Shown in pieces: positions 1 to 41,452 of a stretch of 64,000 nt of DNA (positions within the stretch are counted from its first letter, which is position 1; each line of letters starts with the position of its first letter). Source of the stretch: an uncultured delta proteobacterium (GTDB lineage: Bacteria; Desulfobacterota; Desulfuromonadia; Desulfuromonadales; BM103); contig CAVQRZ010000009.1 of the NCBI GenBank assembly GCA_963715335.1, positions 64,001-128,000 on the forward strand, given 5' to 3'. The notes under the pieces were generated by a model. The model searched no databases. It was not told the DNA's origin and saw only the letters and a list, made by a program, of their open reading frames with translations. A program made the translations under genes and the position numbers.

Positions 1-1844
1 TCGTGATGAAAGGCGTAGGGTTCGGACACGATGACGGCATCGCTCTGCAGGAAGGTCTGGTAGATCTCCTCCGGCTCGCCCTCGGCAAACCAGTAACTCA
101 GGAAAGTCGCGGGGGGGATTTCGGCGACAAACAGGTCACTGGTCCCCTGCGCGGATTCCAGGGTGATGTGGCGGGCCGCGACGATCCGCGCGATGCCGTC
201 GATCCGGCGTGCTGCCCGCAGATAGTCATCCTGCAGAGGCTGCCGTCCGGGGCCGAACGTCGAGCCCGATGTGGACACGTAAATATCGGCCTGCAAATAG
301 CTTTGCAGCCAGGTCTCCACGGTTGAGCGGAAGCTGTTGATCATCAACCCGACGCCAACCGTGGCTGCCACGGCAATCACCAGGGCCGAGGTCGCCACGC
401 CGGTCCGGCTCAGCCCGCCCAACAGGTTGCGCACCGCCAGCTTGCCGAGGATCCCCGAGAAACGGCCCAGCAAAGGCTGGATTTTCCTCAGGATCCATAC
501 GAACGCGCCGGGGACGATCAGGGCATAGCCGGTAATCAGCAGGAACATGAAGAGGAAACTCGCCGGGATGCTCTTGCCGGGGACTATCAGGCCGAACACG
601 CCCAGGGCCATCAGCCCCAGCCCGCCGCCCACGCCCCAGGGAAGCAGCCTGCGCTGCCGGCTTTCGACGTTGGAACGGAGCAGCGCACCGCGCGGGGCGG
701 TCCTGGCCGCCTCCAGCGCAGGCATGAGAGCGGCCAGGGTGGTCGCGCCAAGGCCGAGCAGAAGCCCCTTGGCAAGGGACAGGGGGGTCACGAAAAGAGT
801 CTGGATGTTGAGGACGAAATACAGGTCGTTGATGGTGCGCGTGACAATGGCGAGCAGCCCGTTGGCGAGCAGCACCCCGGCCGCGAGCCCCAGCGCCGTG
901 CCCACGGCGCCGATCAGGAAGGCCTCGACCAGGACCATGCTGAAGATTTCGCGGCGGGTCACTCCCAGGGTGCGCAAGGCGCCCAGCAGCCCCCTGCGCT
1001 GCAAAATCGAAAACGTCATGGTGTTGTAAATGAGAAACATCCCCACCACCAGGGCCAGCAGGCTCAAGGCGGTGAGGTTGAGCTGAAAGGCCCGCGTCAT
1101 CTGCGCCATGGTTTGCGCGCGGCTGTCGGCAGGGAGGATTTCGGCGTTGGCGGGGAGCAGCGGGCGCAGCGCGTCGAGGCTGGCCAGGCCGGCCGCATCG
1201 AGGGGCACAATCAAATCGATGCGGGACAGCCGGCCCTTTTGCGAAAAGAGCTCCTGCGCGGAGCTGAGGTCCATGACGACGAGGTTGTCCAGGGCCCTGG
1301 CGGTGACCTGCTGGCGCGGTTCCAGCAGGCCGACCAAGGTGATCTCACCGGGCTTGCCGCCAATCGTCAGAGGCAGCCGGTCCCCTTGACTGAGACCCAG
1401 TGAACGGGCTGTTTCCCTGGTCATCAAAGCCGCGCCCGGCTCGGTGACCAGGCGGCCCAGGTCGAGCCGGCGGTCGGTGGCCGGCGCATAGTTGCGAAAA
1501 GGCCTTTCGGCGAAGGGGTCGACCCCCAGCAGCTTCAGGGTGAGGCCGGGTTGGCCCGGCACGGTTGCGTAGCCCTCCACGACCGGCGCGCTGTTGCGCC
1601 AATCGCCATTGAGCCGGATCTGCCGGTAGCTGTCCTCGGGCAGGCCGTTGGAACCGCCGACAATCATGTGGGTGGTGCGGCCCGTCAACGCCTCGGCCGA
1701 GAGGTTGAAGGCGCGCTCGGCGCTGCTGTTGGCCAGGTCGATCGCAACGACAACCGCGACCCCCAGGGCGACGCCGATCACCGCAAAGACAAGCTGCAAG
1801 GGATGGCGCAGAAGATATCGGAAGCCGGCTCGCCACAGGATCAT
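1..1844 (-). CDS. FtsX/MacB-family ABC transporter permease (runs off window start)
   Basis: Manual translation from ATG at 1844: [46 protein letters not shown]..., many TM segments; ATGA overlap with stop of upstream ATPase. Confidence 0.85.
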   Translation of the reverse strand, partial: MILWRAGFRYLLRHPLQLVFAVIGVALGVAVVVAIDLANSSAERAFNLSAEALTGRTTHMIVGGSNGLPEDSYRQIRLNGDWRNSAPVVEGYATVPGQPGLTLKLLGVDPFAERPFRNYAPATDRRLDLGRLVTEPGAALMTRETARSLGLSQGDRLPLTIGGKPGEITLVGLLEPRQQVTARALDNLVVMDLSSAQELFSQKGRLSRIDLIVPLDAAGLASLDALRPLLPANAEILPADSRAQTMAQMTRAFQLNLTALSLLALVVGMFLIYNTMTFSILQRRGLLGALRTLGVTRREIFSMVLVEAFLIGAVGTALGLAAGVLLANGLLAIVTRTINDLYFVLNIQTLFVTPLSLAKGLLLGLGATTLAALMPALEAARTAPRGALLRSNVESRQRRLLPWGVGGGLGLMALGVFGLIVPGKSIPASFLFMFLLITGYALIVPGAFVWILRKIQPLLGRFSGILGKLAVRNLLGGLSRTGVATSALVIAVAATVGVGLMINSFRSTVETWLQSYLQADIYVSTSGSTFGPGRQPLQDDYLRAARRIDGIARIVAARHITLESAQGTSDLFVAEIPPATFLSYWFAEGEPEEIYQTFLQSDAVIVSEPYAFHH

Positions 1845-2545
1845 GGCAAACCCTTTGCTTCTGCAACCTGTTCGACCAGGATCCCGTCGCGGATCGTCAG
1901 GACGCGGTCTGCCAGCCGGGCGATTTCCGGACTGTGCGTGACCATCAGGGTGGTCATCCGGTTGGTTCTGATCAGTTGACTCAACAGCTTGAGAACCTCT
2001 GCGCCGGTCTCGACATCCAGGTTGCCGGTCGGTTCGTCGGCCAGCAGCAGCAGCGGTTTGTGGATCAAGGCCCGGCAGATGGCGATGCGCTGCTGCTCAC
2101 CTCCGGAAAGACGGTCCGGATAACTGTCGGCACGATCGGCGAGGCCCACCTGGCCGAGGATGTCGAGGGCCTGTTGTTTTGACTCGGTCGTGATGCTCTT
2201 TTTCAGCTCCAGCGGCAGGAGCAGGTTCTCGATAACGGTGAGCGTCGGGATGAGATTGTAGAACTGGAAGACAAAGCCGATGTGGTCGCGCCTGAAGAGG
2301 GTCCTCTGCTGCTCGGTCATGGTGGTCAGGTTCTGCCCACCGATCCGAACCTCTCCTGCGGTAGGCAGATCGATGCCACTGATCAGGTTCAGCAGGGTAG
2401 ATTTCCCCGAGCCGCTCCGTCCTAACAGGACGACAAAGTCACCTCTGTTGATCGATGCATCAAGCCCATGGAAAACCACCCGTTGACTCTCGCCTTCGGC
2501 AAAAGTCTTGCTCAGATTGCAAATTTCGAGGATTTCATCAGACAC
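1841..2545 (-). CDS. ABC transporter ATP-binding protein (LolD/MacB-like)
   Basis: Walker [18 protein letters not shown] signature, [13 protein letters not shown]-loop VTH. Confidence 0.95.
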
Positions 2546-2843
2546 AGGCAGAAGGTCCTTTTGAAGTCGGTGTCATCGGGGTCCGGTGTCAGGCTTGACT
2601 GATGGGTATTTCGCATACCACCTCTCCGGCAAAAATAAAGAGGAATGCAACGCCTGAAACAGCGTCACAGCCCCCTCCCGTAAAAATAGACGACATATTA
2701 GACCAGACTAAAGCACCCTGTTAAAAATACCCTTTCAACTGTGATTGTCAATTATTCTGATGACCTGCCAAAAGCAACCGGCACCACCCGGATCATGAAA
2801 TCGGGACAGGCCGCGGCGCAGCAGCCGCAGAGCCAGGAGTCTA

Positions 2844-2868
2844 GGGACACTTGTTTTTAAGTGTCCCC
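2844..2868. repeat. REP-like palindrome, family A (GGGACACTT-gttttt-AAGTGTCCCC)
   Basis: Inverted repeat; near-identical copies at 4059, 4818, 5873, 11192. Confidence 0.8.
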
Positions 2869-2912
2869 GGCTCTGAGCTGGTGAAAAAGGGCGGTTTCCG
2901 GACAGAAACGAA

Positions 2913-3422
2913 TTAGCTGATACCCGCTTCCTCCTGCAGCAGAGACACCCAGGCGGCCAGGCGCTGCTCGGTAAGCTGGTCCTGATTTTCGACATCAAGG
3001 GGCAGACCGAGGAAATAATCCCCTTCAACCGCGGCGGAGGCAGAGTAATCGTAGCCTTTATCCGGCCATTTGCCGATGATGGTCGCTCCGGCCGCCACCG
3101 CCAGATCATGCAGTGCCTTCATCCCGTCGACAAAGGCATCAGGGTAACCGACCTGATCTCCGACCCCGTACAAAGCGACCTTTGCCCCCTCCAACTGTGC
3201 CTCGCGCAGGCAGTCATAGGCGTCGTTCCAGTCGTTTTGCAGGCGATCCCCCTCATCGTGCCAGCTTGAAGTGCCGAGAATCAGCAGGTCACAGCTTTCC
3301 AGATCCGCCCGGGTTGCGTTGGCAATGGGATAAAGGCGTGCGGTGGTGATTCGCTCCGCAAGACGTTGCGCGATTAAGGCGGTATTGCCAGTGCTGCCGC
3401 CGTAAAATATTCCGATTTTCAT
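2913..3422 (-). CDS. fldA: long-chain flavodoxin
   Basis: IFYGGSTGNT FMN phosphate loop, LILGTSSW, GVGDQVGYPDAFVDGM; GGAG RBS. Confidence 0.9.
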   Translation of the reverse strand: MKIGIFYGGSTGNTALIAQRLAERITTARLYPIANATRADLESCDLLILGTSSWHDEGDRLQNDWNDAYDCLREAQLEGAKVALYGVGDQVGYPDAFVDGMKALHDLAVAAGATIIGKWPDKGYDYSASAAVEGDYFLGLPLDVENQDQLTEQRLAAWVSLLQEEAGIS

Positions 3423-3509
3423 GATGACTCCTTTATCGACGAAGATAAAATCAATTTAAAACGTTAACCAGTTTGACATGTTAGCATATCAGCGCGGTCA
3501 GAGTGGAGT

Positions 3510-3559
3510 GGGGTCAGGTCTAGAAATTTGAATTGACTCAAGATTAACGACCTGACCCC
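3510..3559. repeat. REP-like inverted repeat GGGGTCAGGTC...GACCTGACCCC
   Basis: 11-bp perfect arms around an AT-rich spacer, between fldA and the MazG-like gene. Confidence 0.6.
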
Positions 3560-3589
3560 GTCAGGAGTGCCCCCGACTCAGTGTCCCAA

Positions 3590-3958
3590 TTAATTATCCC
3601 GACTCTTAGCCTTGTATTCATTGTATTTTTTTGACGAGCCTTTGACCTGCTCGGCAGGATATTTCTGTTCATTCAGCGATATCTTTTGCTGGGCGGCCTG
3701 AACCAAATCAACCCCTAACTTTTCTGACATGCGCAGCAGATAAACAAAAATGTCGGCAAGTTCCAAACGCACCTCCGCCAGCTTGTCATCTGACAAATTA
3801 TAGCTCTGTTCTTCGGTTAACCACTGGAAGTGTTCCACCAGTTCAGCAGCCTCGGCGATCAGAGCCATGGATAAATTTTTCGGCGAGTGAAACTGGTCCC
3901 AATCACGTTCGGCAGCGAAACCGTTTATTCGTTCAATCAGTTCAGTAAGTTCTGACAT
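3590..3958 (-). CDS. MazG-like nucleotide pyrophosphohydrolase
   Basis: ERDWDQFHSPKNLSMALIAEAAELVEHFQW and ELAD motifs; start MSELTE after GGAG. Confidence 0.9.
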   Translation of the reverse strand: MSELTELIERINGFAAERDWDQFHSPKNLSMALIAEAAELVEHFQWLTEEQSYNLSDDKLAEVRLELADIFVYLLRMSEKLGVDLVQAAQQKISLNEQKYPAEQVKGSSKKYNEYKAKSRDN

Positions 3959-4025
3959 GACTATCTCCAGGAACAATCATTGAATATCCTTGCTTAAAAG
4001 GGGCTCTCTGCTTTAAGTGTCCCCA
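3942..4025. repeat. 84-bp direct repeat, copy 1 (mazG 5' end, upstream region, half REP)
   Basis: Identical to 4951-5034. Confidence 0.95.
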
Positions 4026-4058
4026 TTTCCAAATAAATCTGCAAGAGAAACATTGATT

Positions 4059-4084
4059 GGGGACACTTGTTTTCAAGTGTCCCT
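4059..4084. repeat. REP palindrome family A, directly downstream of RAYT stop
   Basis: GGGGACACTTG-tttt-CAAGTGTCCCC perfect 11-bp arms. Confidence 0.85.
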
Positions 4085-4085
4085 T

Positions 4086-4718
4086 TTATAATGTGCGGCC
4101 CAACAATTGTTCAAGCTTCAGCAACATTGCGGGATTACACAAAGGGCGCCCACTTCGGGTCGCCTGATCAATCTTTCTCCTCACCTCCACATCCGCCTCC
4201 AAAATAAACTGGCGATAATCATGTCGCTCATCCTCTTTGAGCCAACCAGGACATGACAGTAGAGGATCTGCACGACCTTCAAGATGGAAGCGGGCACTTG
4301 ACCAAAGATACTCGGCAGCGGTCGGTACCAGGCCCGCTTTCACAGGATTGTTCTCTATATACCTTGCTACTGACCAGAGATATTCATCGCTATCAACAAT
4401 GCAGGAATAGAAACGGTTCTGCCAAACACGACCAGAGCGCAAGTACTTGCGGTTTACATATGTCGTATAAACCTGATTTGTCCGCCCGATACCCAGAGCC
4501 AAGGCCCCGGGCTCTTGAGGGACCGCCAACAGATGGACGTGGTTTGGCATCAGGCAATAAGCCCAGATATCAACCTGAAATTTTTGAGTGTAATGTTTAA
4601 GAAGGTCAGTGTAGATCAGCCGGTCTTGATCATCGAGAAATACCGGCTCGCGGTTGTTGCCACGTTGAGTGATATGATGCGGATAGCCGACGGCCACCGC
4701 GCGAGCATTGCGTGCCAT
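4086..4718 (-). mobile_element. REP-associated tyrosine transposase (RAYT, Y1 HUH family)
   Basis: HHITQRGNNR, YCLMPNHVHLL HUH motif, VWQNRF, YIENNPVKAGLV, YLWSS; REP palindromes on both sides. Confidence 0.9.
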
Positions 4719-4803
4719 GTCCCCCTCCATTAAAAGTCATAACAAAACAAATCTAATGTTGGGATTGTAGCAATGATGAATACGAAGGGCAAATGACTAT
4801 TAT

Positions 4804-4940
4804 GGGGACACTTGAAAGGGACACTTGTTTTCAAGTGTCCCCGGGCCTGAAGGCAAATGACTAAATGGTGACACTGAAAGGGACACTTGATTTAAGTCCC
4901 GGCTCAAGGCAAATATTTGGGGAACTGAAAGGGAACTTTT
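4804..4940. repeat. cluster of tandem and degenerate family A REPs upstream of RAYT
   Basis: GGGGACACTTGAAAGGGACACTTGTTTTCAAGTGTCCCC, then two decayed GACAC/GAACTGAAAGGGA units. Confidence 0.8.
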
Positions 4941-4950
4941 ATTCGTTCCG

Positions 4951-5034
4951 TCAGTAAGTTCTGACATGACTATCTCCAGGAACAATCATTGAATATCCTT
5001 GCTTAAAAGGGGCTCTCTGCTTTAAGTGTCCCCA
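4951..5034. repeat. 84-bp direct repeat, copy 2
   Basis: Identical to 3942-4025. Confidence 0.95.
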
Positions 5035-5037
5035 ATT

Positions 5038-5820
5038 CTATTTCTTAGTTCTGGGTGGAGAAGATTCCAGGATCCCCCTGCTGCGGAGTGCCAGCCAGAC
5101 GGGTGCTGCACCGAGATCGTGCCGGACTTCGAAAAGCTCCATCGGGACGACACCGGCGGCATACTCGTTAATCGCTTTGCGCCAGTTTGCATCGTCTGTG
5201 AACGGGGCTCCCGCATCACGGATGCCCTCGTCACCGGTGAACCCCAGATAAACCAGGATGACAGGGATGCCGAGGCTACCCAACTTCCAGGTAAAAGCCA
5301 GCCGGTTCGCAAGTTGGTAATGCGAGTCGCGGGAGATGTTGACGTGTGGATTGATGCGTTGCCAGGCTTTGCATGCTTCGTCGATCGCATCGCCAATACG
5401 CTCGTGGTTCTCGATCCCTTTAGGTGAAGACGTCTTGTCGAGTCGCTTGCCAGCCGCACCCAACTCAGGCCAGTTCGCTTTCGCTTCAACAAGGACGAGT
5501 CCAGCTTTCCCCTCGATTTCACAGGTCGCAGCGATATCCCAATTCGGCGTATTTGCGCCGCGTCGATGAGCCAGCCACCAGTCCTGCAACTGTTCCCAAA
5601 CAGCATGCCCTGGCATGACTGCTGGCCCGAAACGCTCAAGACGTGCTTCCATTGGATCAGTGTAACCACGGGGCATAAAAATGGTGTCAGGTGGGAAATG
5701 GACGGGGAGCGGGGCAAGAAGTGATGCAAACTCCCTGAGGAAGTTGGGGCTTTCGGTCCAGTCGAGAACGTGTTTGCGGCTACCTCTTTCCAAAATTCCC
5801 TCTATTTTCTTAGTCTTCAA
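5038..5820 (-). CDS. hypothetical protein, putative PD-(D/E)XK restriction-endonuclease-like
   Basis: NWDIAA...LVLVEAKAN (D...ExK) and downstream HYQLANR motif; defence-island context. Confidence 0.55.
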   Translation of the reverse strand: MKTKKIEGILERGSRKHVLDWTESPNFLREFASLLAPLPVHFPPDTIFMPRGYTDPMEARLERFGPAVMPGHAVWEQLQDWWLAHRRGANTPNWDIAATCEIEGKAGLVLVEAKANWPELGAAGKRLDKTSSPKGIENHERIGDAIDEACKAWQRINPHVNISRDSHYQLANRLAFTWKLGSLGIPVILVYLGFTGDEGIRDAGAPFTDDANWRKAINEYAAGVVPMELFEVRHDLGAAPVWLALRSRGILESSPPRTKK

Positions 5821-5821
5821 T

Positions 5822-8800
5822 TTAATTGGGACAAAAACACAGTATCAAGTTTCTGGGCCACTTCATTATTAAAGGGACAGTTGTTTTTAAGTGTCCCCGG
5901 TTCCGTCCTCTGGAATCAGTCCAAACCACCTCAAGAACCGGCACTTCCCAACTATCAACCTTGAGCAACTTTTTAAAGTCCAGGTCCTTCGAATCGTCGG
6001 GACGACGTTCGATCATTGCAATGACCTTGACGCTCTCAATCTGCTCATTTGCTGCCGCCCATTTATCTCTGGCACTTTTGGACAATATCCCAATGGGGTA
6101 ACCGGCCGAGTTGCAGATTTCAAGCTTCTCGCCTGAAATCTTGAAATGGACAGGATCGCCGACATTGATCTTTTCCAGATGCTTATGAACGGGATTCGTC
6201 TCAGCCAATTTCCCTGCGAAATCAAGGTAAACATCCTTCATGCCGATGGTGTCATAACGTCGTTGCAACACTGAATCAGGTATCGACTTTTCTCCAGGTG
6301 GAAATGTCACCAGTTGGTCCCCGCTCAGTTTGCTCTGCAAAGTTTCACAAAACGGGTTTCTCTCATCGGCACGACGGAAGAGACTCAAGCGTCTGCTTGG
6401 CCCTAGTTATCGCCACGTAATAGACGCGCCGTTCCTCTTCTTCTTCTCCTTTGCGTGGAGCCCAGCCACCATCTGCAATGAATACGTGATCGAATTCTGT
6501 ACCCTTCGCGAAATGAACTGTGCTCAGGAATACGCCCCGTCCCATAAAGCGATCACGCTTCTGTTCGACCAGGGCTTCCCAAAGATAATCGATAGCCTGC
6601 TGAACCGGTAGCTCGGAATTCCCTGTCTCCACATGCCAGGCTTGAAGACAAGTGGCCAGGAGACTCCACCAGGGTTGCTGCGGTACGACTTTGGTTCCGG
6701 CGGATTCGACGAGTAAGGTTTCCAGTTCTGTGGCGCGCTTCAAATCGTGCCGCATTGGTTCCAAGGTCGCAAAAAACTGGTGGATCTCACGTACTCTGCC
6801 AATCGGTAGGCTCAAGTCCTGTCGAGCATAAGCGACAGGTATGCCGACATATTCAAGGGCAGCACGAATGGTTGCAAGTTCTTCGTGGGTCCGTGACAAC
6901 ACGGCGCAGTCAGACCACTGCAACGCGGGATTACACTTCTTGAGTTTTTCCAGTTGCGAGACAAGGGCCTTGGCCTGCGCATTGCGATCAGACACCTGAA
7001 GAATCTGAACACGCCCTTTGGCAAACGGGTCAAGGTGTGTCCAATCGCCACCTGGCACCAGCCGCTCTCGTCCTTTGTTGATCCGGATGGGATACTCAGT
7101 TTTCATCCGATCGCGGTTCTCAGAGATATGAGCATTCCCCGCAGCAATGATATTGGCTGTTGAGCGGAAGTTCTCAACCAGGTGATGAAAGCGGGCCTGG
7201 TAATCCTTTTCGAATTGCCGAATGAAGGCGACATTAGCCCCACGAAACGTGTAAATATTCTGGTCGTCGTCCCCCACAGCCATGATCGTCAGCTTGGCGT
7301 CGTCGTCTTCCAATGTCCGCCCGGCAATGGCAGAGACCAGATCATACTGACGCTGATCAATATCCTGATATTCATCCACCAAAATGTGCTGATACCCGGC
7401 CAGCAGCCTATCGCGAAGTTCATCTTGCACCAAGCCAGGCAGGTCCTCCTCGCCTTTCAGCAAACGGATCGCCTGATCAATCAGGGCATCGAAATCGATC
7501 CCTTCATCCCCTTCTTTGGCCAGTCTGTCGGCAAAGGATGTCCCGGTCAGCCGCATCGCCAACCCGTGATAAGTGAGGACCGTCACTCCGATGGCATCGG
7601 AGCCAACCAGTTCCCAGAGCCGATGCCGTAATGAACTGGCGGCCTGACGATTAAAGCAGAGAATGAGGACGCTACTGGCTGGGACACGAGCGACACGCAA
7701 CAGATAAGCGCAGCGATGCACGACGACACGGGTCTTTCCCGAACCTGGGCCTGCCAGCACCAACATGTTTTCGTTGACAGGAGCCGACACGATGGCCATC
7801 TGCACCGGGTTTTCCAGATTGTCGACGATCCGCCGGTAGGAGTCCTGACTGGTTGCCCGATCCAGAATCTCTTTGCGACCGGCAAAGAAGCGTTGTACGA
7901 AGTCACGTTTATCCATGGCGAAGTAAGCCGCAACCAAACCAAGCGCCTGCTTGATCTTTTCCACACCGAGGCGGGCGTACTCGTTCATGACGTGCACCTG
8001 GAATGTCCGCTCTTTATAGTGGTGCTCCAGTGGGTTGTAGTCCCCCTTGGTGTATTTCCGTTTGCTTTCAAGCAGACGGATCGTCATGGCCTGACGAAAC
8101 ACGGCCAGACCTTGTTGAAGGACGATCACCTTCTGCTCATGCAGAAACATCAAGGCTCGCTCAATCGCAGCCAGCTCATTTTTAACCTGGCCGGAGAGGA
8201 ACATGTCGCCTTTCAAGGCGGCAACCAGATCATCGAGAGAGAACTCAACCAGGATATCTGCACCAGCCGGGGTTGATTGAGGGATCTTGTCGATAATGGC
8301 CTCAAGGAGGACTTTTGCCAGACTGGAACGCAATTGCGAGGTCTTGATCAAGGCCTCCCAGTCTCGATGCAACTTGACCAGATAGTGCTCCGCATTGCGA
8401 TAAATCAGATCAAGGCTGCCTCGCTGACCTGCCAAGGCCCTTCCCGTCCCGGGCTAGGCTGCTCAAAATGGACAGTAAAAATTCTGGGACACTGGCAAAG
8501 TTCTGATCCAGGAGGCGCTGGTTCACCCGGCGTGGCGAAAGATGCAACCAACCCTCGGCATCTGGTTCTTCTTCCTGAAGCACCTTCAATAGAGCAGTTT
8601 CCAGCTCACAGACCTTGTCCAAGGCCAACAGGGAGTGATTGGCAATTTTGTAGCGTACAAAGGCCGTAAGCAGCAGGTCCCGCTTAATCAAGCCCGCTTC
8701 AGCCATATCATTCATTGTTTTGAGAATGCGCTGGGAATCCGCCATGCGTATTTGATGACCGCCCTCAGCGACCTGTTCAGGCGGGTCTATGAATTCCGGC

Positions 8801-11117
8801 AACTCGGCCAGTTGATCAGCACTCAAACCCTCATCGGGATTGGCATTCATCAGCGCCGTGAGGATTGCCATCCAGCGCCGCTTGGTCAGGACCGGCAAAT
8901 TCAAACTGGAAATTTTTTCCTGCGCTTCATCCAGATTGCGAATCGCCGGACGCCCCTGAAACACGCCAGTGCTATTGTGATTGCGCTCGACAAATCCGGC
9001 CCGCTCAAGCCAGGCAACTGCGGTTTTCACCTTGGTGTCAGCCTGACTGTCGTCGTACTCAAAACTGGTATCGACAACATCGCTCCGGAGAATTTCTCCG
9101 GTCGTGATTACAATTTCACCGTCTCGGTTCTTCTTAGCCAGCCGCAGCCCACGCAATATCTGCCAGATATCTCGAAGACTCAACTCCGACATTGCACCCA
9201 TCTTGAACTGGGTCTCGATATCCTGTTCGTCGTAGAGGAGAATGCACTCAGCATCTTTCTGATCACGACCGGCTCGTCCTGCTTCCTGAAGATAGTTCTC
9301 CAACGACCCGGGAATTTCAGCATGAATGACCAGGCGCACATTGTCCTTGTCGATCCCCATGCCGAAGGCATTCGTCGCAACAATCACCTGAATCTGCCCG
9401 GCAATGAAATCTTCTTGTATCTGTTTTTTGATCGGAGCCTTCAACCCGGCATGGAAGGCAGCAGAAGAGAGCCCCTTCTTAATCAGATATTCATTGATGT
9501 TTTCGGTCTGGCGCCGTGTTGCGGCGTAGACGACCGCAGCACCTTCCGGGGTCAAACGTTCGGCGAGGAGATCATAAACCCGCTCCATCTTCTCGGCACG
9601 GCTGACGGTCTGGACTTCGAAATGCAGATTGTCACGATCGACACCACCTTCGAAAAGTCGCAATTCCTGACCAAGCTCACGTCGGAAGTAATCAACAATC
9701 TCCTCTTCCACAGCCTTTTTCGCGGTGGCCGTGAAACAAGCGATTGCCGGAATCGGCACCCCCTGATCTTTGGAGAACTCACGGATAAACCGTGCGGCAT
9801 AGAGATAATCAGTGCGGAAGTCATGTCCCCATTTCGAAAGACAGTGCGCCTCATCGAAGACCCAGCAACCGATCTCACGCTGACTGATGACTTCCTTAAA
9901 CGAGCGATTGCGCAACTGTTCCGGGGAGACATAGAGGATGGCGGTATCGCCCAGGCGAACCGATTCGAGCACCTGCCCTCGCTCAGGCGGTGTCAACATC
10001 CCATAGAGGGCTGCGGCAAAAGGAGTGCCGGTTTTGGCAACCAGATTGTCGACCTGGTCCTTCATCAATGCCTGAAGGGGTGAAATGACAATCGTCAGCG
10101 TGCCACGTCGGTAGTTCCGTACCAGAGCAGGCAATTGAAAGCAGAGGGACTTTCCACCACCGGTGGGCAAGATTGCTAACTGTGCCTGATCACTCATGCC
10201 GTGCCGAACGATCGCTTCTTGCAGGCTGGTCCCATCTGGTGTGGAGGGCTGTGGACGGAACGCTGAAAACCCAAAATAGCGCTGCAATTGACCGACAGGA
10301 TCATGATTTAACCGGCAGTATTCACAATTCGGGTCTTCGCAGGGAACATCGCGCAATTGTCTGAGGATCGATACCGTACCAGCGAAGTTCTTTCTGACCC
10401 AGGGTGGCAGGACGGAGTTGTGCCCAGAGACCCTCAGCCAGGCAACACAGTATGCGAGGGTGGCGCACTCATCCGGGTCCCAGATGTACTGTTTGGAAAC
10501 GGTTCTCAGGGCCGACTTACAAACTTTCCCATCTGTTATTTCATTCAGAAGCTTGATTGAATCTTCGAGCTGAATTGGCTGTGCACCAAGACTCTTGAAA
10601 ACCTCGCGAAGCCCTACCCACTTGGTCGTCTGCTCATCCGAGTTTTCAAAACAGAACCGGTAGAAATCCAAAACCCGGGGGCTGTGCTGATGGAGTTGTT
10701 CAAATGCTTCCCATTGATCAGCAAAGATCGATGCTGCAAGTTGGGCGTCTGCAACGGGGTCGTTTACTGATTGACGAACCAGTTTGTAGTCTTTGACAAG
10801 ACGGTGGTAGGGGTTTTCCGGAAAAGCGAGAGGAGAAAGATAGAGGGTATCGATGACCGGCTTTTTCAGCAGGTCAAGTTGCGGGGCGATATGTCTCCAG
10901 TAGCGGTAAGTCGTGGCCAAGGATGATTGTGACCAAGGACATAGGTTGCCTCGGCACCGAACTGATCAAGTTCAGACAGAGCTTCTTTAAGGTTGAATCG
11001 GCCTTGTCTCTCAAAAGTCTGATCCTGAAAAACAGCACCGATTTTGAAGATTTTCCCTTCAGGGGTGGTTTCTAGATCAAGAAGCAGAGATTTTGTGAGA
11101 AGCTCTTGTAATTTCAT
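5822..11117 (-). pseudogene. large DEDD-exonuclease-like + RecQ + UvrD helicase fusion (~1750 aa) split by four +1 frameshifts (real lesions or assembly errors)
   Basis: Four ORFs join after single-base removals: LDLET..LGHN|ILGHDLPLL|RHIAPQ; PTGGGKS, DEAHC, ATNAFGMGIDK, QEAGRAGRD (RecQ); DGKG|LAGQ; AGPGSGKT, VDEYQD, GDDDQNIY, YYVAITRAK (UvrD); KQT|LSLF. Confidence 0.8.
5873..5898. repeat. REP palindrome family A at the helicase/nuclease junction
   Basis: GGGACAGTTGTTTTTAAGTGTCCCC. Confidence 0.75.
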
Positions 11118-11191
11118 TCAGTATCGCAATCTATAAAAATTTCCAACTCACTACAACAAGGACAAGACAATGGTCAGCCTGACATCCAATG

Positions 11192-11230
11192 GGGGACACT
11201 TAAAAGGGCCCCTTGTTTTTAAGTGTCCCC
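11192..11230. repeat. REP palindrome family A between DUF2075 and the RecQ fusion
   Basis: GGGGACACTTAAAA...TTTTAAGTGTCCCC, 14-bp arms. Confidence 0.85.
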
Positions 11231-11266
11231 GGCTCGAATTGCACAGGTCAATCTTCAGAAGTGTTA

Positions 11267-13240
11267 TTACAAAACTGAGAAACCAATTCTGCGGAGGTAA
11301 TTAAATGTAGTGTCATAATAATCTGGATTCCGTGTCACATCTTCTGCATCTCCTGGCGGAATGACGATCACCATGCCTTGGCGGGCTCTTGTAAGCAAAA
11401 CTCGATAAGCATTTTTAAGGTAAGATTTACGCTCTTCCTTGTTGATGTTGCACCATTTACTGCCCCTGAAAGACTTGCAATCCCAACCTTCTCGTGAAAA
11501 ACGAAAATCAGCATCCCACGTCACACACACCCAGTCTAACTCAAGCCCTTGAACATGAAATTCCGTTGCGACAGCTTCTAAGTAATATGAGGATCTGACA
11601 TCGCTTTTACCATCAAGAAACCAGTTAACAGGATTCATTGGCGAGCGAACATCTATAGCATGCGGCTTGAGTCGTTCGGCTTGCGAAGAAACTACAATTC
11701 CATAACGTTCCGTACCGCGGGCTTTCAATTTTAACCATTTTTTGGCTTTATCAATATCGCGGGTAATAACAATAGGATATTTTTCCGTCACACAGTTCAA
11801 TGTCTCGCGAGCGCCTTCAATATCTATATCTAAGATCTGCTTTACCAACAGAGATACATGCTCGGCGCGAAAGGACCTCATTGATACCGAAAGATGCAGG
11901 TCATCATTGAAAAATACATTTTGTCTTGATGACAAATTCATCAAGTTAGCTTCAGCAGAGTATTCACTGTCTGATAGTTTCGGTGAAATATGTACATGCC
12001 ATTCAGGAAATTGATCATTCAGGGCCTTAATCCATTCCGTAATACCAGCTTCACCAGTATTAATTTCTTGTCCTCCACCAACTAGGCAGATGATCACAGC
12101 CCAATCATTGTGTCGATCTAGACAGGAGATTAGAAACTCCGGTTCAGATCGATTAAAGTCAGGCATATTTTTTTTGCGGCGCATGAAAAAAGATGTCTGC
12201 TCAACGTCCCAAGCACGTTGAGCCTCATCAAAAAGGACCACATGTTCGATAGGCGGAGAAGAGTCCTTAAGACACTCGTCTCTGAAATGATGGACATTTT
12301 GGATGAACGCTTTGACTTCACTCAATGCGGTAGACTTTTTTAGTTTCACTCCTTTCTCTTTGGCACGAGTAACCTTGTCTCTGGCTAAAGCTTCGCAAAG
12401 AATTGACACAAGGGGGCCATTACCAGAGAGAAAAACGCTATAAAGATCATCTTTTTTCTCAATATGTTTGGTCGCTACATTTAAGCCGACCAAGGTTTTC
12501 CCTGCACCAGGTACACCAGTTACAAAGCATAGGGCCTTATTTCTGTGTGCCCTTGAAACTTTAATCACTTCATCAATAGCATCTGATGTTTTCGTCAAGT
12601 TTATAGCTGTTGCATCACTACGTGAAATATCAGCTACAGAATGCTCGTTGTATAAAGCAGTAGCAGCCTCAATAATTGTAGGTGTAGGTTTATATTTCCC
12701 CCCTTCCCAGTCATCCCTATCAATGGGCACCCCATCAACAAATGACAGCACATTCTCTATCACAGAGTTTAGTAATGACGTGTTAGTCACAATAGGAGAA
12801 AGCAACCTGTCGTCTTGATGTGTGAAGGAAACTAATGGACTGCAAGAAGAGGCTTCTGTGGCAACAAGTATTGGGACTACATATTTTTCATGACTAGTTT
12901 CGTGGAAATTTTTTAAATCGAGGGCATAATCCCAGACTTGATCAATTGCATGCGCCTTAAATTCTGTTTCACCGACTTTAAATTCAAGCACAAAAATTGC
13001 TGGCCCAATCAATAAAACAGTATCTATTCGACGCCCCATTCGAGGGATAGCATATTCGAAATAAATACTCCCTTCGTATGCTTTAGTCAGTTGTTTCAAG
13101 ATTTTAATTTGTTCTTCCCATGCATACCTTTGGGTTTGTTCAATAGCGAACTCACTATTCGATGCAAGAGCACCAAGGACCTCATGAATTGGTGAGGTTT
13201 GAAAGGAATTGATATTGTCTGAGTAATAGGCGCGTTTCAT
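11267..13240 (-). CDS. DUF2075 (Schlafen group 3-like) helicase with N-terminal nuclease-like domain
   Basis: [48 protein letters not shown]; visibly AT-rich. Confidence 0.85.
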
Positions 13241-13264
13241 ATGATGTGATTACCTAAGAAGAAT

Positions 13265-13672
13265 CTAAACAAGACGACCAATGACAGTCAAATATGTCGA
13301 CAAAACCGGCAGGTCTGCTTCTGCCCAATCAAGCTCGTGAAGTTTCTCTGGGGGCTTCCAATTTACAGCAGCATGCTCATGCAAAACGATCTCACCGCTT
13401 TCAATGAAACAGATGAATGGGTACAGAGTTATCGTAAAATCCGGGTAGTTATGCGTGTGTCTCGGAAGAGCCTTTTGGATGTCCACTGCAATACTCATCT
13501 CTTCAAACATCTCTCGCTTCAAACACTCCTCAGGGGATTCACCCTCATCGATTTTCCCTCCAGGGAATTCCCATTTAAAAGGAAGCTTCATATTTGCCCC
13601 TCTTTGAGCAGCAAGCACAAAACCACCATTTTCGACAATTGCACAAGTTACATGAAGATGTTTATGTTCCAG
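13265..13672 (-). CDS. NUDIX hydrolase, MutT/NudG-like; start uncertain
   Basis: WEFPGGKIDEGESPEECLKREMFEE Nudix box; frame open upstream of the GTG (KHLHVTCAIVENGGF) to a CTG right after the HIT stop. Confidence 0.85.
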   Translation of the reverse strand: MEHKHLHVTCAIVENGGFVLAAQRGANMKLPFKWEFPGGKIDEGESPEECLKREMFEEMSIAVDIQKALPRHTHNYPDFTITLYPFICFIESGEIVLHEHAAVNWKPPEKLHELDWAEADLPVLSTYLTVIGRLV

Positions 13673-14062
13673 TTAATAACCCATCTTCCCAGGCACACAT
13701 CCTCGTACCCCACCACGCGGATCAGCAACATCCCCTGCTCGTCTCGGAATCAAATGAATATGCGCATGCATCACTGTCTGCCCGGCAACTTCGCCGCAAT
13801 TCATCCCTATATTGAACCCTTCGACACAGGGATCGTCCTCCAGAATCTTGCTCTTAAGTATGAACAACAAGGATTCCGCATCACGACGCTCACGCGACAT
13901 AGCGAAGAAGTCATGCACGTGTCGTTTGGTGATGACAAGATGATGCCCTTCAGTGACCGGAAACTTATCGCGTACCGCGCAGACCGTGCCATGCTCGACG
14001 ACCACGCGGGGGCCATTAATCAAGTCACAGAAAACACAACCGGATTCAGTGACAGCACTCAT
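13673..14062 (-). CDS. HIT family nucleotide hydrolase
   Basis: CVFC, FPVTEGH, AGQTVMHAHIHLIPRR histidine triad. Confidence 0.92.
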   Translation of the reverse strand: MSAVTESGCVFCDLINGPRVVVEHGTVCAVRDKFPVTEGHHLVITKRHVHDFFAMSRERRDAESLLFILKSKILEDDPCVEGFNIGMNCGEVAGQTVMHAHIHLIPRRAGDVADPRGGVRGCVPGKMGY

Positions 14063-15042
14063 GCGCTCAACCTGAACTCTTTACGATGCCAGCCAAGAAA
14101 CTCCTGTGCCGGCCATAATTCACGATCAGCAGGCGGTAAAACACCTCGCCCTGCCATGGTCTGCAAAACTCCAGGCACATTCGGATCGGCACCGATCTGT
14201 CGTGAGGCAATCACATTGTAATCGCACGACACACCGACCACGCCGCGATCAAATGCCCAGTGACAGAGTTTGCAGAGCGCCATACCGTTGCGCACATCAT
14301 CGTTCCGGCTCTTGCTCCAGGGGACAATATGCGCGGCATCGACAGCCGTATGCCCTTCAGGCGTGATAATGCGGAGTCCGCACAAGGCACAGCGATGATC
14401 GTAGGCCGCAACCACCACACGGCGGAAACCCTGGTCACGCACAGCCGGCTTGTAACTGTCTGTGTCAACGATGTCCTTGACGAGTGGTTGGTGGGCCTTT
14501 TCGTACAACACCTGGCTGTAAACGTACGCTTCGTCGTTGATGGCGATCTGTTCGGAAAGGGAAGCCTGGGCCTCAGTCGAAAAGCAAGACATCAACAAGG
14601 TGTTCCTTAACGCCTCACGACTTTCAGCAATCTGCATGAAGCGAAAAAGCTCTTCATCAACCTGGGCAGCCACAGCATACTTGCGCAACTGCGTTACATT
14701 GTTGATGCTATTCAGAACAGCGGGTTCGAAGGGCTCGCCACTTATAGATACCAACGTCCAAAAAGGTTCATTGTGCAACCGTGAAAAGGGAAAGGCGATA
14801 CTGCTGGTATGTCCAAGTGGAGCAACACGACGCCAGTAACCATTAAACAACTCGTTGGCTTCAACCAGGTCATCAGTGACACCCAGCACCGGCGAATCAA
14901 ACACCCCACGACTGACCAGATCGATAATCGACAAGAGCAGGATTGGCTTGTGCGGTGCACGCTTCAACGTCGCCTCGTTCCAAATTGGACCGGGCGCACG
15001 GTTGAGTTGTGCAAACATTTGCAGATATGTGTCTAAACTCAA
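14059..15042 (-). CDS. HNH endonuclease with SBD-like N-terminus (putative modification-dependent restriction nuclease)
   Basis: RAPHKPILLL and FPFSRL N-terminal motifs; C-terminal RDQGFRR..CALC..AAHIVPW..NGMALCKLCHWAFD. Confidence 0.8.
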   Translation of the reverse strand: MSLDTYLQMFAQLNRAPGPIWNEATLKRAPHKPILLLSIIDLVSRGVFDSPVLGVTDDLVEANELFNGYWRRVAPLGHTSSIAFPFSRLHNEPFWTLVSISGEPFEPAVLNSINNVTQLRKYAVAAQVDEELFRFMQIAESREALRNTLLMSCFSTEAQASLSEQIAINDEAYVYSQVLYEKAHQPLVKDIVDTDSYKPAVRDQGFRRVVVAAYDHRCALCGLRIITPEGHTAVDAAHIVPWSKSRNDDVRNGMALCKLCHWAFDRGVVGVSCDYNVIASRQIGADPNVPGVLQTMAGRGVLPPADRELWPAQEFLGWHRKEFRLSA

Positions 15043-15591: not shown

Positions 15592-16857
15592 CTAATTTTC
15601 TACAAGAGAGAAGGAGTTTAAGAATTGTCGGCGCCACATCAGTCCTCTGTCGATTTCGCTCAATTGAGCTTCGTCGCAGACATCTGCCCAATTATTCTCT
15701 ATGACCTCTTTTTGCCTATCAAAAATCGTTCGGGCATCGTCCTCTGAAATCAGGAAATTATGTGCTGTTGCCAGGCAATTTTTCAATTGGCTTAGGTTGT
15801 TGTTACCACAGATCAACATGGCCTGTGATGCTTCATTACCAGAGCGCCCTTGTGGGCAGATATCGTAGGCAGGTGTAAGGCTAAGACTTTTGCCGTCCCA
15901 AAAAGCGGCATGGTTGCGAGCGTGGTCATCCGTATTGCCACACAGGACATTAAAAACAAGCCTTGAATACAACTCTTTTAACGTCTTCTTTGGTTCAGCG
16001 AATCGATATCGGACAATTTCTGCAAAGGTTTCATAGCTGGCATAGCGCGCCATCATATCATCCAGGCCAAACAAGGTTAATGCTGAAACCATAGCTTTCC
16101 GTGTCCATTCATTATTTATTTTTTCCCGATCGAACCTTTCTATGAGCAACACGTCTTTGTGTGCGGCCCTCACCAACCTAACAGGCGCAACATCTAAATC
16201 TATAAGTGCAGCGAGTTTCATAGCAATAAATTCCGCCTTAACAACGCTGTACAAATCAGAGCGAGAGGAGAACTTGGCAACGTACTTCTTGCCTTGGTCC
16301 TCCACTAAAGCCTTGGGTCGCGCGCCGCCGATAGAGCTGCCGTGAAACAAAGCTTGATCAAGGTCTGGGGTTAACGGCACACCTTTTTCTACTCTTGCCG
16401 CAGACTCAAGGAGTTCTTCCAGCGTGGCATTTGTAGATAAGCGAGGCACATATTCTGTCGGTGAGACTTGAAAATCCAGCGCACCAATTCGATCAGAGCC
16501 CGACTCGAGAAGGTATGTCAATTCATCAAGCACTGCGGTATCTGTCTCGGCGCTCTTAAGTCCCAGTTTTTTATTGATGATGACACGTCGCCCCCACGCA
16601 TCCGGGGACGCGTCCCTGATGCATCCTGGCATTTTAAGACCGTCCAGCAAAGGGAGATCTCCGGCCTTCAGGGGAAGTTCAGGTTCATAAAGGGATATGG
16701 CAGGCGTGGTGCTGTTAACTCGGTCCAGATAACTTTTACCATAGTTAAACAGAAGAGTGTCTTTGTTCGCTTCCAGCCTGCCGGCAACAACAGGCCTGGT
16801 TGCTCCGGGCAACCAGACCCAGACATAGGCTTCATCATACTGACCATTAGAAGTCAT
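15592..16857 (-). CDS. hipA: HipA-family kinase toxin
   Basis: SSIGGARPKA P-loop, IERFDR, GNTDDHARNH, LTPAYDI. Confidence 0.9.
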   Translation of the reverse strand: MTSNGQYDEAYVWVWLPGATRPVVAGRLEANKDTLLFNYGKSYLDRVNSTTPAISLYEPELPLKAGDLPLLDGLKMPGCIRDASPDAWGRRVIINKKLGLKSAETDTAVLDELTYLLESGSDRIGALDFQVSPTEYVPRLSTNATLEELLESAARVEKGVPLTPDLDQALFHGSSIGGARPKALVEDQGKKYVAKFSSRSDLYSVVKAEFIAMKLAALIDLDVAPVRLVRAAHKDVLLIERFDREKINNEWTRKAMVSALTLFGLDDMMARYASYETFAEIVRYRFAEPKKTLKELYSRLVFNVLCGNTDDHARNHAAFWDGKSLSLTPAYDICPQGRSGNEASQAMLICGNNNLSQLKNCLATAHNFLISEDDARTIFDRQKEVIENNWADVCDEAQLSEIDRGLMWRRQFLNSFSLVEN

Positions 16858-17179
16858 CTCGGATTTCCCTCTTCTTTCCTTGGGTACGTTTAGGCAACAA
16901 CGCAATTTTGTCTCTTGTCTGATTGAGTTGCATTGACAAAGGCGATTCATCACTTTCAAACAGAGGGAACCCGACCAGGGCGGCAACTTCAAAATACGAA
17001 CCGATGGCGCAACTCACTTCGCCATTTTCAATTTTCTGCAATGTTGCTCTGGAGATACCGGCGCGTTCAGATAGATCGCGCTCCGACCAGTTCCGTTGTT
17101 TGCGTCCCAATTTAATTTGTTCCCCAAACAGAGAAGCTGCTTCTTGAGCGTATTTTGAATGGATTTTCTTCTTTCCCAT
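16847..17179 (-). CDS. XRE-family HTH antitoxin (HipB-like)
   Basis: LSERAGISRATLQKIENG HTH; overlaps hipA start. Confidence 0.85.
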   Translation of the reverse strand: MGKKKIHSKYAQEAASLFGEQIKLGRKQRNWSERDLSERAGISRATLQKIENGEVSCAIGSYFEVAALVGFPLFESDESPLSMQLNQTRDKIALLPKRTQGKKREIRDDF

Positions 17180-20177: not shown

Positions 20178-20930
20178 ATGAAAACCATGACGATCGCAAT
20201 CCTCAGTTTAACCCTGGTCATGCTCGGATTTCTGCAGGTGCAGAGTATGGCTATGGACGACACCATGACCAAGCCCGGCGACATGCAGATGAAGTCCGAC
20301 GGCAAGGAGATGAAGCCTGATGAGATGAAGGGCGACATGAAGATGGAAGCCGACGACATGAAGGGCGACATGGAGATGAAGCACGATGACATGAAAATGG
20401 AATCTGACGACATGAAGGACGACATGAAGATGAAGCACGACGATATGAAGAAAGACGAAAAGATCATGGAGGGAGACCCGATGAAAAAGAGCCAGGCCGT
20501 CATCCCGACCGATGCAGAGCTCCGCGATCGATTGACCCCGCTGCAGTACAAGGTCACCCGCAAGGACGGCACCGAGCCTCCGTTTAACAATACCTACTGG
20601 AACAACCACGAGGCGGGCATCTATGTCGACATCATCTCCGGAGCACCGCTGTTCAGCTCGACGGACAAGTATGAATCGGGGACGGGCTGGCCAAGTTTCA
20701 CCAGACCCTTGAATCCTGACGAAATCGTTGAGAGAGAGGATCGCAGCTTCTTTTCGGTGCGCACCGAAATCCGCAGCAAACAGGCCGATGCGCATCTTGG
20801 CCATCTGTTTACAGACGGCCCGGCCCCGACCGGCTTGCGCTACTGCATGAATTCGGCATCCTTGCGCTTCATTCCGAAGGACGCTCTGGAAAAAGCAGGC
20901 TACACAGAATACGTGGCGTTGTTTGAGTGA
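20178..20930 (+). CDS. msrB: secreted MsrB with Met-rich repeat N-terminal region
   Basis: Signal peptide, DDMK/MKM repeats, [30 protein letters not shown]. Confidence 0.92.
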
Positions 20931-21041
20931 TAGACAAACATCGCCACCCGGCTAGATCGCCAGGAGCTTAAAGCTTACCGGGAATCGTCGACGCTGGGGC
21001 CGTCATATGCACCATGACAACGCCGAAAGACGATGGCGTGG

Positions 21042-22482: not shown

Positions 22483-23238
22483 ATGAATACAGAGTACATC
22501 ATCGAAACGCGCAGTCTGACCAAGGAGTTCTCAGGATTCATCGCCGTGAGAGGTGTCAATCTCAAGGTTCGCCAAGGCACAATACACGCCATGATTGGCC
22601 CCAACGGCGCAGGCAAGACCACAGTCTTCAACCTTCTGACCAAATTTCTCGAGCCCAGTTCCGGGCAGATTTTCTACAAAAACAAAAACGTCACAGGCAG
22701 AAACTCCGCGGCCCTGGCGCGCCGAGGCCTGGTGCGCTCTTTCCAGATCTCAGCAGTTTTCCCTCACCTGAGCGTGTTGGAAAACGTCAGGGTCGCTCTG
22801 CAGAGAGAGACCGGAACATCCTTTCACTTCTGGAAATCTGACCATAGCCTGAACAACCTCAACGCCCAGGCAATGGAGGCGCTTGAAGAGGTCGACCTCG
22901 CGGATTACGCGAAAACCATCGCGGTGGAGCTCCCATACGGCCGTAAACGCGCTCTGGAACTGGCCACCACCCTTGCCCTCAAACCTGAGGTAATGCTGCT
23001 CGACGAGCCCACATCGGGGATGGGTCATGAAGATGTGGGAAAGGTCATGGAGCTGATTCGCAAGGCGGCGGCAAATCGCACGGTCCTCATGGTCGAACAC
23101 AACCTCAAGGTTGTGGCAGACCTTTCGGACACCATCACGGTGCTGCAGAGAGGCCAGATTCTGGCCGAGGGGAGCTACGCGGAGGTCTCGGAAAACCCGG
23201 CCGTCCTCGAGGCTTATGTTGGAGGCCAACATGCATGA
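22483..23238 (+). CDS. livG: branched-chain amino acid-type ABC ATPase
   Basis: GPNGAGKTT, LPYGRKRALE, LDEPTSG. Confidence 0.88.
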   Translation: MNTEYIIETRSLTKEFSGFIAVRGVNLKVRQGTIHAMIGPNGAGKTTVFNLLTKFLEPSSGQIFYKNKNVTGRNSAALARRGLVRSFQISAVFPHLSVLENVRVALQRETGTSFHFWKSDHSLNNLNAQAMEALEEVDLADYAKTIAVELPYGRKRALELATTLALKPEVMLLDEPTSGMGHEDVGKVMELIRKAAANRTVLMVEHNLKVVADLSDTITVLQRGQILAEGSYAEVSENPAVLEAYVGGQHA

Positions 23239-27066: not shown

Positions 27067-27150
27067 TCTTGCCGAAATCGGAATCGGGGGACATAATACC
27101 TATTCTAATGTTTAATCTCTTCCTCAACCCCCATCCAACACCCCCAACCC

Positions 27151-41360: not shown

Positions 41361-41452
41361 CTGTTGCAGACACGACCCTCAAAGGCATCGATTATGGGGA
41401 CACAATACTTGATTGCATTGTGTCCCTTTTCGTTTTGACCGTTGAAAGCTTA

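Follow-up and report, generated by a model that had tools for sequence, protein, structure and literature searches.

TIRtrons, in which a tyrosine transposase associated with TIRs (terminal inverted repeats), the TIRYT, accompanies repeats of the consensus GGGGWSAS, were described by Di Nocera et al. 2013 (PMC3733652), and in the available portions of the descriptions TIRYTs form small repeat families, with inverted repeats round the gene and no cargo, and no binding or cutting of the repeat by the enzyme is mentioned. For TnpA-REP of Escherichia coli, a transposase associated with repetitive extragenic palindromes (REPs), it was reported that single-stranded DNA is cut hundreds of bases from the REP (PMC3333891) and that strand exchange and recombination take place between REP substrates in vitro (PMC3333891, PMC8266576), and a sequestration of neighbouring genes was proposed in 2012 (PMC3333891). 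Which role REP-associated tyrosine transposases (RAYTs) play in their hosts is presented as unsettled (PMC5581495, 10.1101/2024.07.17.603846); for subclass 2.1, a large one, the available text of PMC6006769 lists no identified substrate. Here, we analyzed a TIRYT-like Y1-HUH transposase gene and the hairpin repeats around it in a 64,000-nucleotide window of an uncultured delta proteobacterium (G000:C9:64001-128000, where G000 is the source genome, C9 and C10 are two of its contigs, and further G and L numbers denote other genomes and loci).

As shown by the comparison of this locus with its relatives, polar hairpin repeats are the joints at which units of one to three genes change neighbours, duplicate, drop out and come in from other genera. 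By analogy with TnpA-REP, we propose with moderate confidence that the TIRYT-type HUH transposase makes these joints, the locus working like an integron cassette array devoid of integron parts. The type of enzyme, the type of repeat and gene capture by TnpA-REP are already known or proposed; for reordered, cross-genus arrays at such repeats, no description was found in the literature searched, which consisted mostly of papers outside subscription.

Hairpin repeats are the joints of reordered gene units

An initial annotation of the window had placed one palindrome family at nearly every gene junction between 2844 and 11232, with a RAYT stop codon at 4086, a nuclease stop codon at 5038 and all genes on the minus strand. 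Every listed site is present in the sequence, a repeat was found at 6/6 junctions from 2844 to 11232, and the stop codons, genes and strands are as stated (Table 1); the list had missed a second repeat family (3510-3559) and an 88-bp duplication (3942-4029 / 4951-5038). Full hairpins are located at 2844, 4059, 4804 and 11192 (folding z -3.5 to -6.0), the copy at 5873 is mismatched and forms only a weak hairpin (z -0.8), and right half-sites only are present at 3580, 4015 and 5024, the stretch at 4015 having a z of -0.2. Both repeat families match the consensus GGGG[AT][CG]A[CG] (GGGGWSAS), with GGGGACAC and GGGGTCAG, and the 62 distinct repeat copies compared share a GAGCC-like foot consensus and include no GTAG foot.

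Within the source genome, 58 of the 113 8-mer half-sites fall in 37 kb (1.1%), with 43 expected genome-wide under a Markov model. These 37 kb comprise two array stretches, one at C9:52.4-75.3 kb, beginning 11.5 kb to the left of the window, and one at C10:27.2-41.5 kb; together they hold 17 of the 24 full hairpins of G000, and the polarity of the repeat is constant in each of them (9/9 in C9, 9/9 in C10). A half-site is found at 22/34 junctions inside the two arrays versus 24/2778 elsewhere, of which only the outside figure is free of circularity, the arrays having been delimited by the repeat itself; it indicates that the repeat is rare between core genes. Isolated symmetric hairpins between core genes were observed at G000:C1:78500 and C14:12243, and look static given matching hairpins in G003 and G002. 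A single GGGGACACAA..TTGTGTCCC hairpin variant lies far from the array (window 41397-41427).

The C9 array reads, in order, metallo-hydrolase, nitroreductase, zincin, two haem proteins, MscS, ABC1 kinase, phosphorylase, flavodoxin, lipocalin-ABC block, flavodoxin (98.8%), MazG-like, transposase, unit N, RecQ-UvrD and DUF2075, and the C10 array metallo-hydrolase, CDP-alcohol transferase, RluA, an unknown gene, nitroreductase, zincin, lipocalin-ABC block, MscS, MazG-like, flavodoxin, a second transposase (66% at the amino acid level), unit N and NERD-UvrD. Seven blocks are common to both (84-99% nucleotide identity) in changed order, with MazG and flavodoxin swapped, and 14/14 block ends lie at most 30 bp from the motif in at least one array. 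C10 represents either a second locus or another strain, as the bin holds many strain duplicates and the left-flank genes of C10 are single-copy.

A third order was observed in the congener G002, with a Fic gene added and the transposase absent from the orthologous locus. Its flavodoxin-N junction is the empty form of the corresponding C10 junction, the two differing by the whole transposase unit and sharing a 10-bp core. In G003, the MazG-like gene stands directly at the left flank of C9, and in G011 and G024, which belong to another genus, several units are found at 89-95% in other orders and orientations. The same holds for individual units: the block of unit E, with its beginning at a repeat 1.9 kb to the left of the window, is 98.4% identical in C10 with different neighbours on both sides; the neighbours of the MazG-like unit differ in C10, G002, G003 and L123; and blocks end at the 2844..2873 repeat in the C9, G018, L123 and L135 comparisons.

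Breakpoints were counted over 38 loci, using blocks of at least 250 bp and at least 88% identity and random intergenic positions as the null (2000 draws); L127, L141 and L128 (redundant) and flavodoxin loci below 88% identity were left out, and the near-redundant L125 and G018 both kept. Among 145 distinct internal ends, 62 lie at most 30 bp (null 16.6, maximum 31) and 72 at most 60 bp (null 26.4, maximum 43) from an exact motif. Junctions beside a shared gene were broken in 58/66 cases with a repeat, versus 34/71 without. When the count was re-run without G000, its genus and flavodoxin and with 7 loci added (21 loci, 14 common with the first set), 23/59 ends were within 30 bp (null 7.1, maximum 16), and two scrambled motif sets gave 0/59. 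Since the loci are related, these counts are not independent tests. Joints between the foot side of a repeat and unrelated DNA show an overlap of 0-3 nt, for example inside the phosphorylase gene in L122. Taken together, gene content and order change at repeats in relatives and the repeats are rare between core genes, which were the two outcomes on which the initial annotation had staked its proposal that genes are captured or shuffled at these repeats.

The flavodoxin unit (F) provides a cargo that can be traced beyond the genus. A metagenome scan returned 23 close loci; copies of at least 95% identity lie among repeats with varying neighbours, and homologues of 85-87% have no adjoining repeat. 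The 14 close copies with upstream DNA, representing 10 distinct contexts, have a single 5' border ~87 nt before the ATG. It follows immediately on the CCC(C) end of a repeat, of one family or the other, or falls within a half-site; this CCC(C) is all that the two families share. The 3' border lies 0-45 nt after the stop codon, just before the repeat foot. In the window, the unit is carried with 87 nt of upstream DNA, and its second copy lies 5.4 kb leftward. It is 93-99% identical at the nucleotide level in 6/44 family genomes from four genera, compared to an rpoB identity of 79.5-81% between G000 and three of those four genera, and we conclude from these identities that the repeat-bounded flavodoxin unit is horizontally transferred across genera.

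Assembled contigs of public runs from other studies (sediment and salt marsh) bridge the F-M junction (3484-3969) and the M-transposase junction (3995-4256, 0 differences), the latter spanning the interval 4015..4084 with 0 differences. One public contig joins 3510 to 3586 and misses the second-family repeat. Loose ends of public contigs cluster at 2844-2908, 3510-3515, 4804 and 4842; others are found inside the transposase gene and at 3435, 3920, 4754-4763 and 5815. No public contig bridges 4900-5016, a stretch that decays like poor consensus, so that the transposase-N joint and the 88-bp duplication are unconfirmed, and the decaying part of 4804..4950 may be a consensus error. Candidate circle joints were discarded: 4798->2843 (run X9) is really the nitroreductase-zincin junction, which shares the promoter module and repeat, and 4841->5885 and 5905->5032 rest on repeat sequence only.

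The transposase and its proposed role in making the joints

In the transposase, H64-x-H66 and Y124-x-x-x-N-P are intact, and H64, H66, Y124, N128 and P129 are invariant in 38 aligned sequences; the match of the sequence to PDB 4ER8 is weak (E 0.006). At the C-terminus, the WSS extension and a conserved stretch are present, the last GRP motif is missing and no helix-turn-helix is reported by Pfam. Each of 11 close HUH-gene orthologues has a repeat on both sides or within ~110 bp. Plain inverted repeat pairs were observed only in the 54-57% relatives G028 and G034, and here full hairpins of one polarity stand on both sides. Given the GGGGWSAS repeats and the absence of a GTAG foot, enzyme and repeat work like a TIRYT and not like a classical REP/RAYT pair, an assignment made by repeats and motifs. 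Among the closest known systems are thus the TIRtrons/TIRYTs, which probably correspond to subclass 2.1 as defined by Quentin et al. 2018 (PMC6006769), and which are RAYT group 1 in the scheme of Bertels et al. 2017 (PMC5581495).

The locus had been termed RAYT-centred, a description that is not supported: the transposase gene is itself a repeat-bounded unit that is gained and lost, and this query returned no close orthologue in G002 and G011, both of which have arrays. Across the family, genomes with a close orthologue have a mean of 10.0 hairpins (n=12) compared to 2.8 without (n=32), kin in these groups not being independent.

Further observations were made on related transposases and their loci. 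Array-linked transposases (at least 57% identity) end just before a repeat and are without the C-terminal GRP motif; relatives whose transposase gene has plain inverted repeats at its flanks (G028, G034, L046; alignment A1) retain this tail. In L014 and L015, the transposase frame reads through the repeat. A TIRtron is duplicated at 98.4% with repeats at its ends (L034:7021-7789 and 10343-11110, G034), as is a lipoprotein-like unit at 80% with repeats at all four ends (L030:9602-10309 and 13063-13734, G007).

In the mechanism that we propose, modelled on E. coli TnpA-REP, the enzyme would bind the hairpin on exposed single-stranded DNA and cut at the hairpin or a few bases away, and the tyrosine-linked end would be used for strand transfer. 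Transfer from repeat to repeat would release a unit, probably in the form of a single-stranded circle, and integrate it again at a different repeat, by which arrays would be built and reordered. Transfer of a repeat foot onto unrelated DNA would create new units, among which joints sparing gene and promoter would be retained by selection; ragged 3' borders (0-45 nt past the stop codon, sometimes inside the last codons) together with the fixed flavodoxin 5' border would fit such foot transfer and selection. No fixed platform is involved: units have putative promoters of their own, and the transposase gene is one of the units gained and lost. The constant polarity in C9 and C10 and the larger number of hairpins in genomes with a close orthologue are consistent with this enzyme model. 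A cut site between C and T as in E. coli TnpA-REP was considered and dropped, as GGCTC (other strand) is found in many feet and not in GAATC, GAACC or GCGCC, and the joints disagree on its position; a lagging-strand bias was likewise dropped, the GC skew of the loci being near zero and uninformative.

On a broader and more tentative view, to which we give somewhat less than even credence, TIRYTs and GGGGWSAS hairpins might constitute a second, HUH-driven integron-like system with a cross-genus pool, in which the enzyme would mint cassettes by attaching a hairpin beside the stop codon and the promoter of a gene, would reorder them through single-strand excision and insertion at other hairpins, and would accept hairpins of sister TIRYT families; group 1 RAYTs would then gain a function.

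Several points weigh against the transposase-driven reading. Regarding the breakpoints, 73/145 ends have no exact motif within 60 bp; degenerate repeats or a repeat-free donor side are seen for some of these, and nothing of the kind for others, for example where G002 has lost unit E (the ABC block), with one end devoid of a repeat. Moreover, BLAST extends through repeats common to both loci, pulling ends towards them. Regarding the repeats, their polarity is mixed in G007 and G006, some isolated core-gene hairpins are static and common to congeners, and C10 may be the array of another strain, which gives a second order either way. Regarding the enzyme, no single cut dinucleotide is found across the joints, no circle joint was detected in the assembled contigs of 6 public runs, no close transposase orthologue was found for the arrays of G002 and G011, and the hairpin trend has exceptions: G020 and G053 with 13 and 17 hairpins and no close orthologue, and G016 with 1 hairpin. 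Finally, REP hairpins have been described as hotspots of rearrangement in E. coli in an account that, in its available portions, invokes no transposase (PMC3161906).

The last point is central to the main alternative, according to which the transposase only makes and spreads repeats locally and host replication and repair, by template switching and short-homology recombination, shuffle units at the hairpins. In the E. coli work, REPs were the site of 22/90 amplification junctions, with homology of 5-20 bp at 14 of them, and secondary structure was held responsible; as far as the available text goes, TnpA-REP was not tested there (PMC3161906). The persistence of arrays where a close orthologue was not found would suit host repair, as would the 10-bp core of the empty/filled pair, which is within microhomology range. 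Deletion and tandem duplication would easily arise in this way, but reversal of order, insertion of foreign single genes between repeats, the fixed 5' border used by two repeat families and the 0-3 nt foot-side overlaps would all need repeated precise events, and we regard host repair as an unlikely, if serious, explanation. That the repeats are passengers, dropped by the transposase into the gaps of a region variable for other reasons, appears improbable: it would fit the 34/71 repeat-free junctions that are breakpoints too, the static nature of some hairpins and the presence in the region of HipA, of Fic and (in G002) of a tRNA-Leu gene. It would not fit the 3-4-fold closeness of ends to repeats relative to random intergenic positions, the match of borders to repeat edges at single-base precision, or the repeats that are fused within genes and furnish stop codons.

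IS110 elements target REPs, and another recombinase (integron integrase, Xer-type or IS110-type) could in principle use the repeats, with the HUH gene as a bystander. Two tyrosine recombinases are present in the genome, but no recombinase is among the annotated array genes, the best match to the IntI model TIGR02249 scores 88 bits against a cut-off of 265 and lies on other contigs, and a simple pattern scan for attC core pairs (RYYYAAC..GTTRRRY) gave 0 in either array. Together with the repeats that flank or closely adjoin all 11 HUH orthologues, this makes such a recombinase a very remote candidate. Least credible of all, and largely refuted, is the notion that the differing orders arose artificially, from misassembly or misbinning at short repeats. 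Contamination of the bin amounts to 6.9%, many 88-99% duplicated stretches are present in it, 4843-4950 decays like bad consensus and is unbridged, and the helicase gene is frameshifted; against this, contigs of other studies bridge two junctions, the independent assemblies G002, G003, G011, G024, L123 and L135 give further orders, and the copies differ by 1-16%.

Units and neighbouring genes of the window

Table 1. Repeats, units and bordering genes at the left end of the window (window positions; z, folding z).
Feature	Position	Strand	Remarks
Unit E, right part (lipocalin/CrtC, ABC permease and ABC ATPase; three genes)	1..2817	-	Pfam
Main-family repeat, full GGGACACTT..AAGTGTCCCC hairpin with GAGCC foot	2844..2873	-	z -3.5
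Flavodoxin gene, unit F	2913..3422	-	TIGR01752 over cut-off
Second repeat family, GGGGTCAGGTC..GACCTGACCCC (GGGGTCAG..CTGACCCC)	3510..3559	-	z -4.2; constant 5' edge of unit F
Degenerate and half repeats at MazG-like stop	3565..3587	-	
MazG-like nucleotide pyrophosphohydrolase gene, unit M	3590..3976	-	PF12643
Half-site 4015 and full hairpin 4059-4084, interval between M and transposase stop	4015..4084	-	
Y1-HUH transposase, TIRYT / RAYT type, 214 amino acids	4086..4730	-	NF047646 81.5 bits (cut-off 80); PF01797
Promoter-like module TTGCCC-17-TACAAT, predicted	4758..4800	-	just inside repeat
Extended repeat (4804-4844), then two decaying copies	4804..4950	-	
Second copy of MazG-like start and upstream half-site (5024), 88 bp	4951..5038	-	99% identical to 3942-4029
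Unit N, 260 amino acids	5038..5820	-	nuclease-like by language-model look-alike only
RecQ-UvrD fused helicase gene, unit RQ, four frameshifted pieces	5822..11117	-	
Repeat fused into last RecQ-UvrD codons	5873..5900	-	stop codon supplied by repeat in G002
Last array repeat, extended form	11192..11232	-	G002: same repeat, same place
Candidate defence genes next to the array: DUF2075/Schlafen-g3 helicase, Nudix, HIT, HNH	11267..15042	-	

The repeat-bounded units had been taken for defence-type genes, which the searches do not support. PADLOC was blank for the flavodoxin, the MazG-like gene and unit N and gave only generic helicase matches for RecQ-UvrD, and most repeat-bounded units are metabolic or membrane genes (Pfam being the only scan of those lying outside the window on the left). 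The two clear defence candidates given by PADLOC, DUF2075 (PDC-S41, E 8e-291) and Nudix (PDC-S07), are both beyond the last repeat, and in the window no repeat was found between the DUF2075, Nudix, HIT, HNH and HipA genes. Nor is there support for a MazG-like gene split here from a usual DUF2075 neighbour, as 0/6 MazG-like copies observed (C9, C10, G001, G002, G003, L123) adjoin DUF2075. Unit N matched no family in Pfam, NCBIfam or PADLOC, and its ESM Atlas neighbour, a 'putative restriction endonuclease' (0.95), is a lead only.

The RecQ-UvrD unit is present as initially annotated, but in the form of four frameshifted pieces, with the 5873 repeat inside the last one. The frameshifts are located near 6380, 8430 and 10890-10930, and some may be consensus errors, as single bases at 8432, 10893 and 10926 are missing in public contigs. 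In G002, the gene is found as a 1578-amino-acid frame, and in C10 NERD-UvrD stands in its place. Homologues from 8 loci with 0-1 motif end soon after a conserved VVW-like motif, and in G002 the repeat is joined near this motif and provides the stop codon.

A 35-40 bp sigma-70-like module adjoins the repeat before the transposase here and before the nitroreductase in both arrays, and in G003 such a promoter-like module lies on its own, with a repeat on either side, like a promoter-only cassette (window 4758-4800; G000:C9:54601-54635; C10:32300-32337; L204:1459-1498). A c-di-GMP-I-UAU riboswitch is located upstream of NERD-UvrD at the end of the second array (L002:19864-19939, G000:C10). Repeats are found beside tRNA-Leu(CAA) at L203:6624-6709 (right flank of the G002 array) and L008:6069-6154 (G000:C33), the latter tRNA gene adjoining both a repeat and a multihaem cytochrome paralogue. 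A HipA-like kinase with an XRE-type partner occupies window 15592-17179, to the right of the candidate defence genes, where G002 has other genes. A dispersed repeat of ~450 bp is present in dozens of copies at 80-90% identity on most G000 contigs and in four congeners (for example C10:1-486, 20794-21094, 22906-23149 and 26268-27176), and had no Rfam match in the loci scanned.

Significance and comparison with known systems

The locus offers a named enzyme, a defined site of 24-45 nt, an empty/filled pair and a traceable cargo gene, and with these defined the question of the RAYT role becomes a direct cleavage and strand-transfer assay. Should the enzyme prove to run the shuffling, this would be a new kind of cassette system: bacteria would possess a gene-cassette route overlooked by integron finders and able to make cassettes from chromosomal genes, and a 214-amino-acid enzyme with short sites might find use in DNA assembly. 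To our knowledge, the origin of integron cassettes is unsettled.

E. coli TnpA-REP, of the REPtrons and bacterial interspersed mosaic elements, probably belongs to the same enzyme fold family (Ton-Hoang et al. 2012, PMC3333891; Corneloup et al. 2021, PMC8266576; PDB 4ER8), and the accounts consulted attribute to it the traits likened here, namely hairpin binding, distant cutting, inter-repeat strand exchange and a proposed capture of flanking genes. Unlike classical REP/RAYT groups 2 and 3, the present system has no GTAG foot and comprises tens of clustered repeats, not hundreds chromosome-wide; unlike in REPtrons, the transposase gene is gained and lost, and strain-reordered, cross-genus multi-unit arrays do not figure in those descriptions as far as available. 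TnpA-REP of probably the same subclass was proposed to drive localised diversification of prochlorosin genes in picocyanobacteria, a case with no inverted repeats, a single gene family and a causal claim since withdrawn, whereas the cargo here is mixed (10.1101/2020.03.09.984088).

The resemblance to TIRYTs includes a Y1-HUH gene flanked by GGGGWSAS repeats, tens of repeats, the Y-x-x-x-N-P motif, the WSS extension and, as reported in part of the literature, more horizontal transfer than in other RAYT groups. In contrast to TIRYTs, polar full hairpins are here packed between genes of changing order, and the array-linked clade (at least 57% identity) is without the C-terminal GRP tail of its relatives that have plain inverted repeats.

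IS91/ISCR and IS200/IS605 elements share HUH chemistry, the capture of neighbouring genes and one precise plus one variable end. Both are named in PMC3333891; they mobilise DNA joined to the element itself, and here non-autonomous units lying between repeats move separately from the enzyme gene.

A further locus was noted in L036 (G028:C1:3542001-3562000), where short same-strand open reading frames at ~9500-14750, near a TIRYT in a complete genome and with no GGGACAC repeat, look like a classical integron array. From integrons, the present arrays differ by the lack of IntI (over the cut-off), attC (pattern scan), attI or Pc and by HUH instead of tyrosine-recombinase chemistry; units carry putative promoters, face both ways, include multi-gene blocks and have ragged 3' borders, and no integron-like platform is present, the transposase lying inside the array with changing neighbours and being missing at the orthologous locus of G002. 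The initial suggestion that the repeats act like attC sites does not extend to an integron, with neither IntI, attC pairs nor a platform, but it stands in that units reorder, excise and insert at the repeats, as judged by comparative evidence only. In line with the available description of integrons and of CALINs (clusters of attC sites lacking integron integrases; PMC8618304), the arrays are made of units of single genes in tandem, every joint being marked by a site of folded DNA; they undergo shuffling, are exchanged among co-habiting lineages, appear to outlive the enzyme and include a putative promoter-only mini unit.

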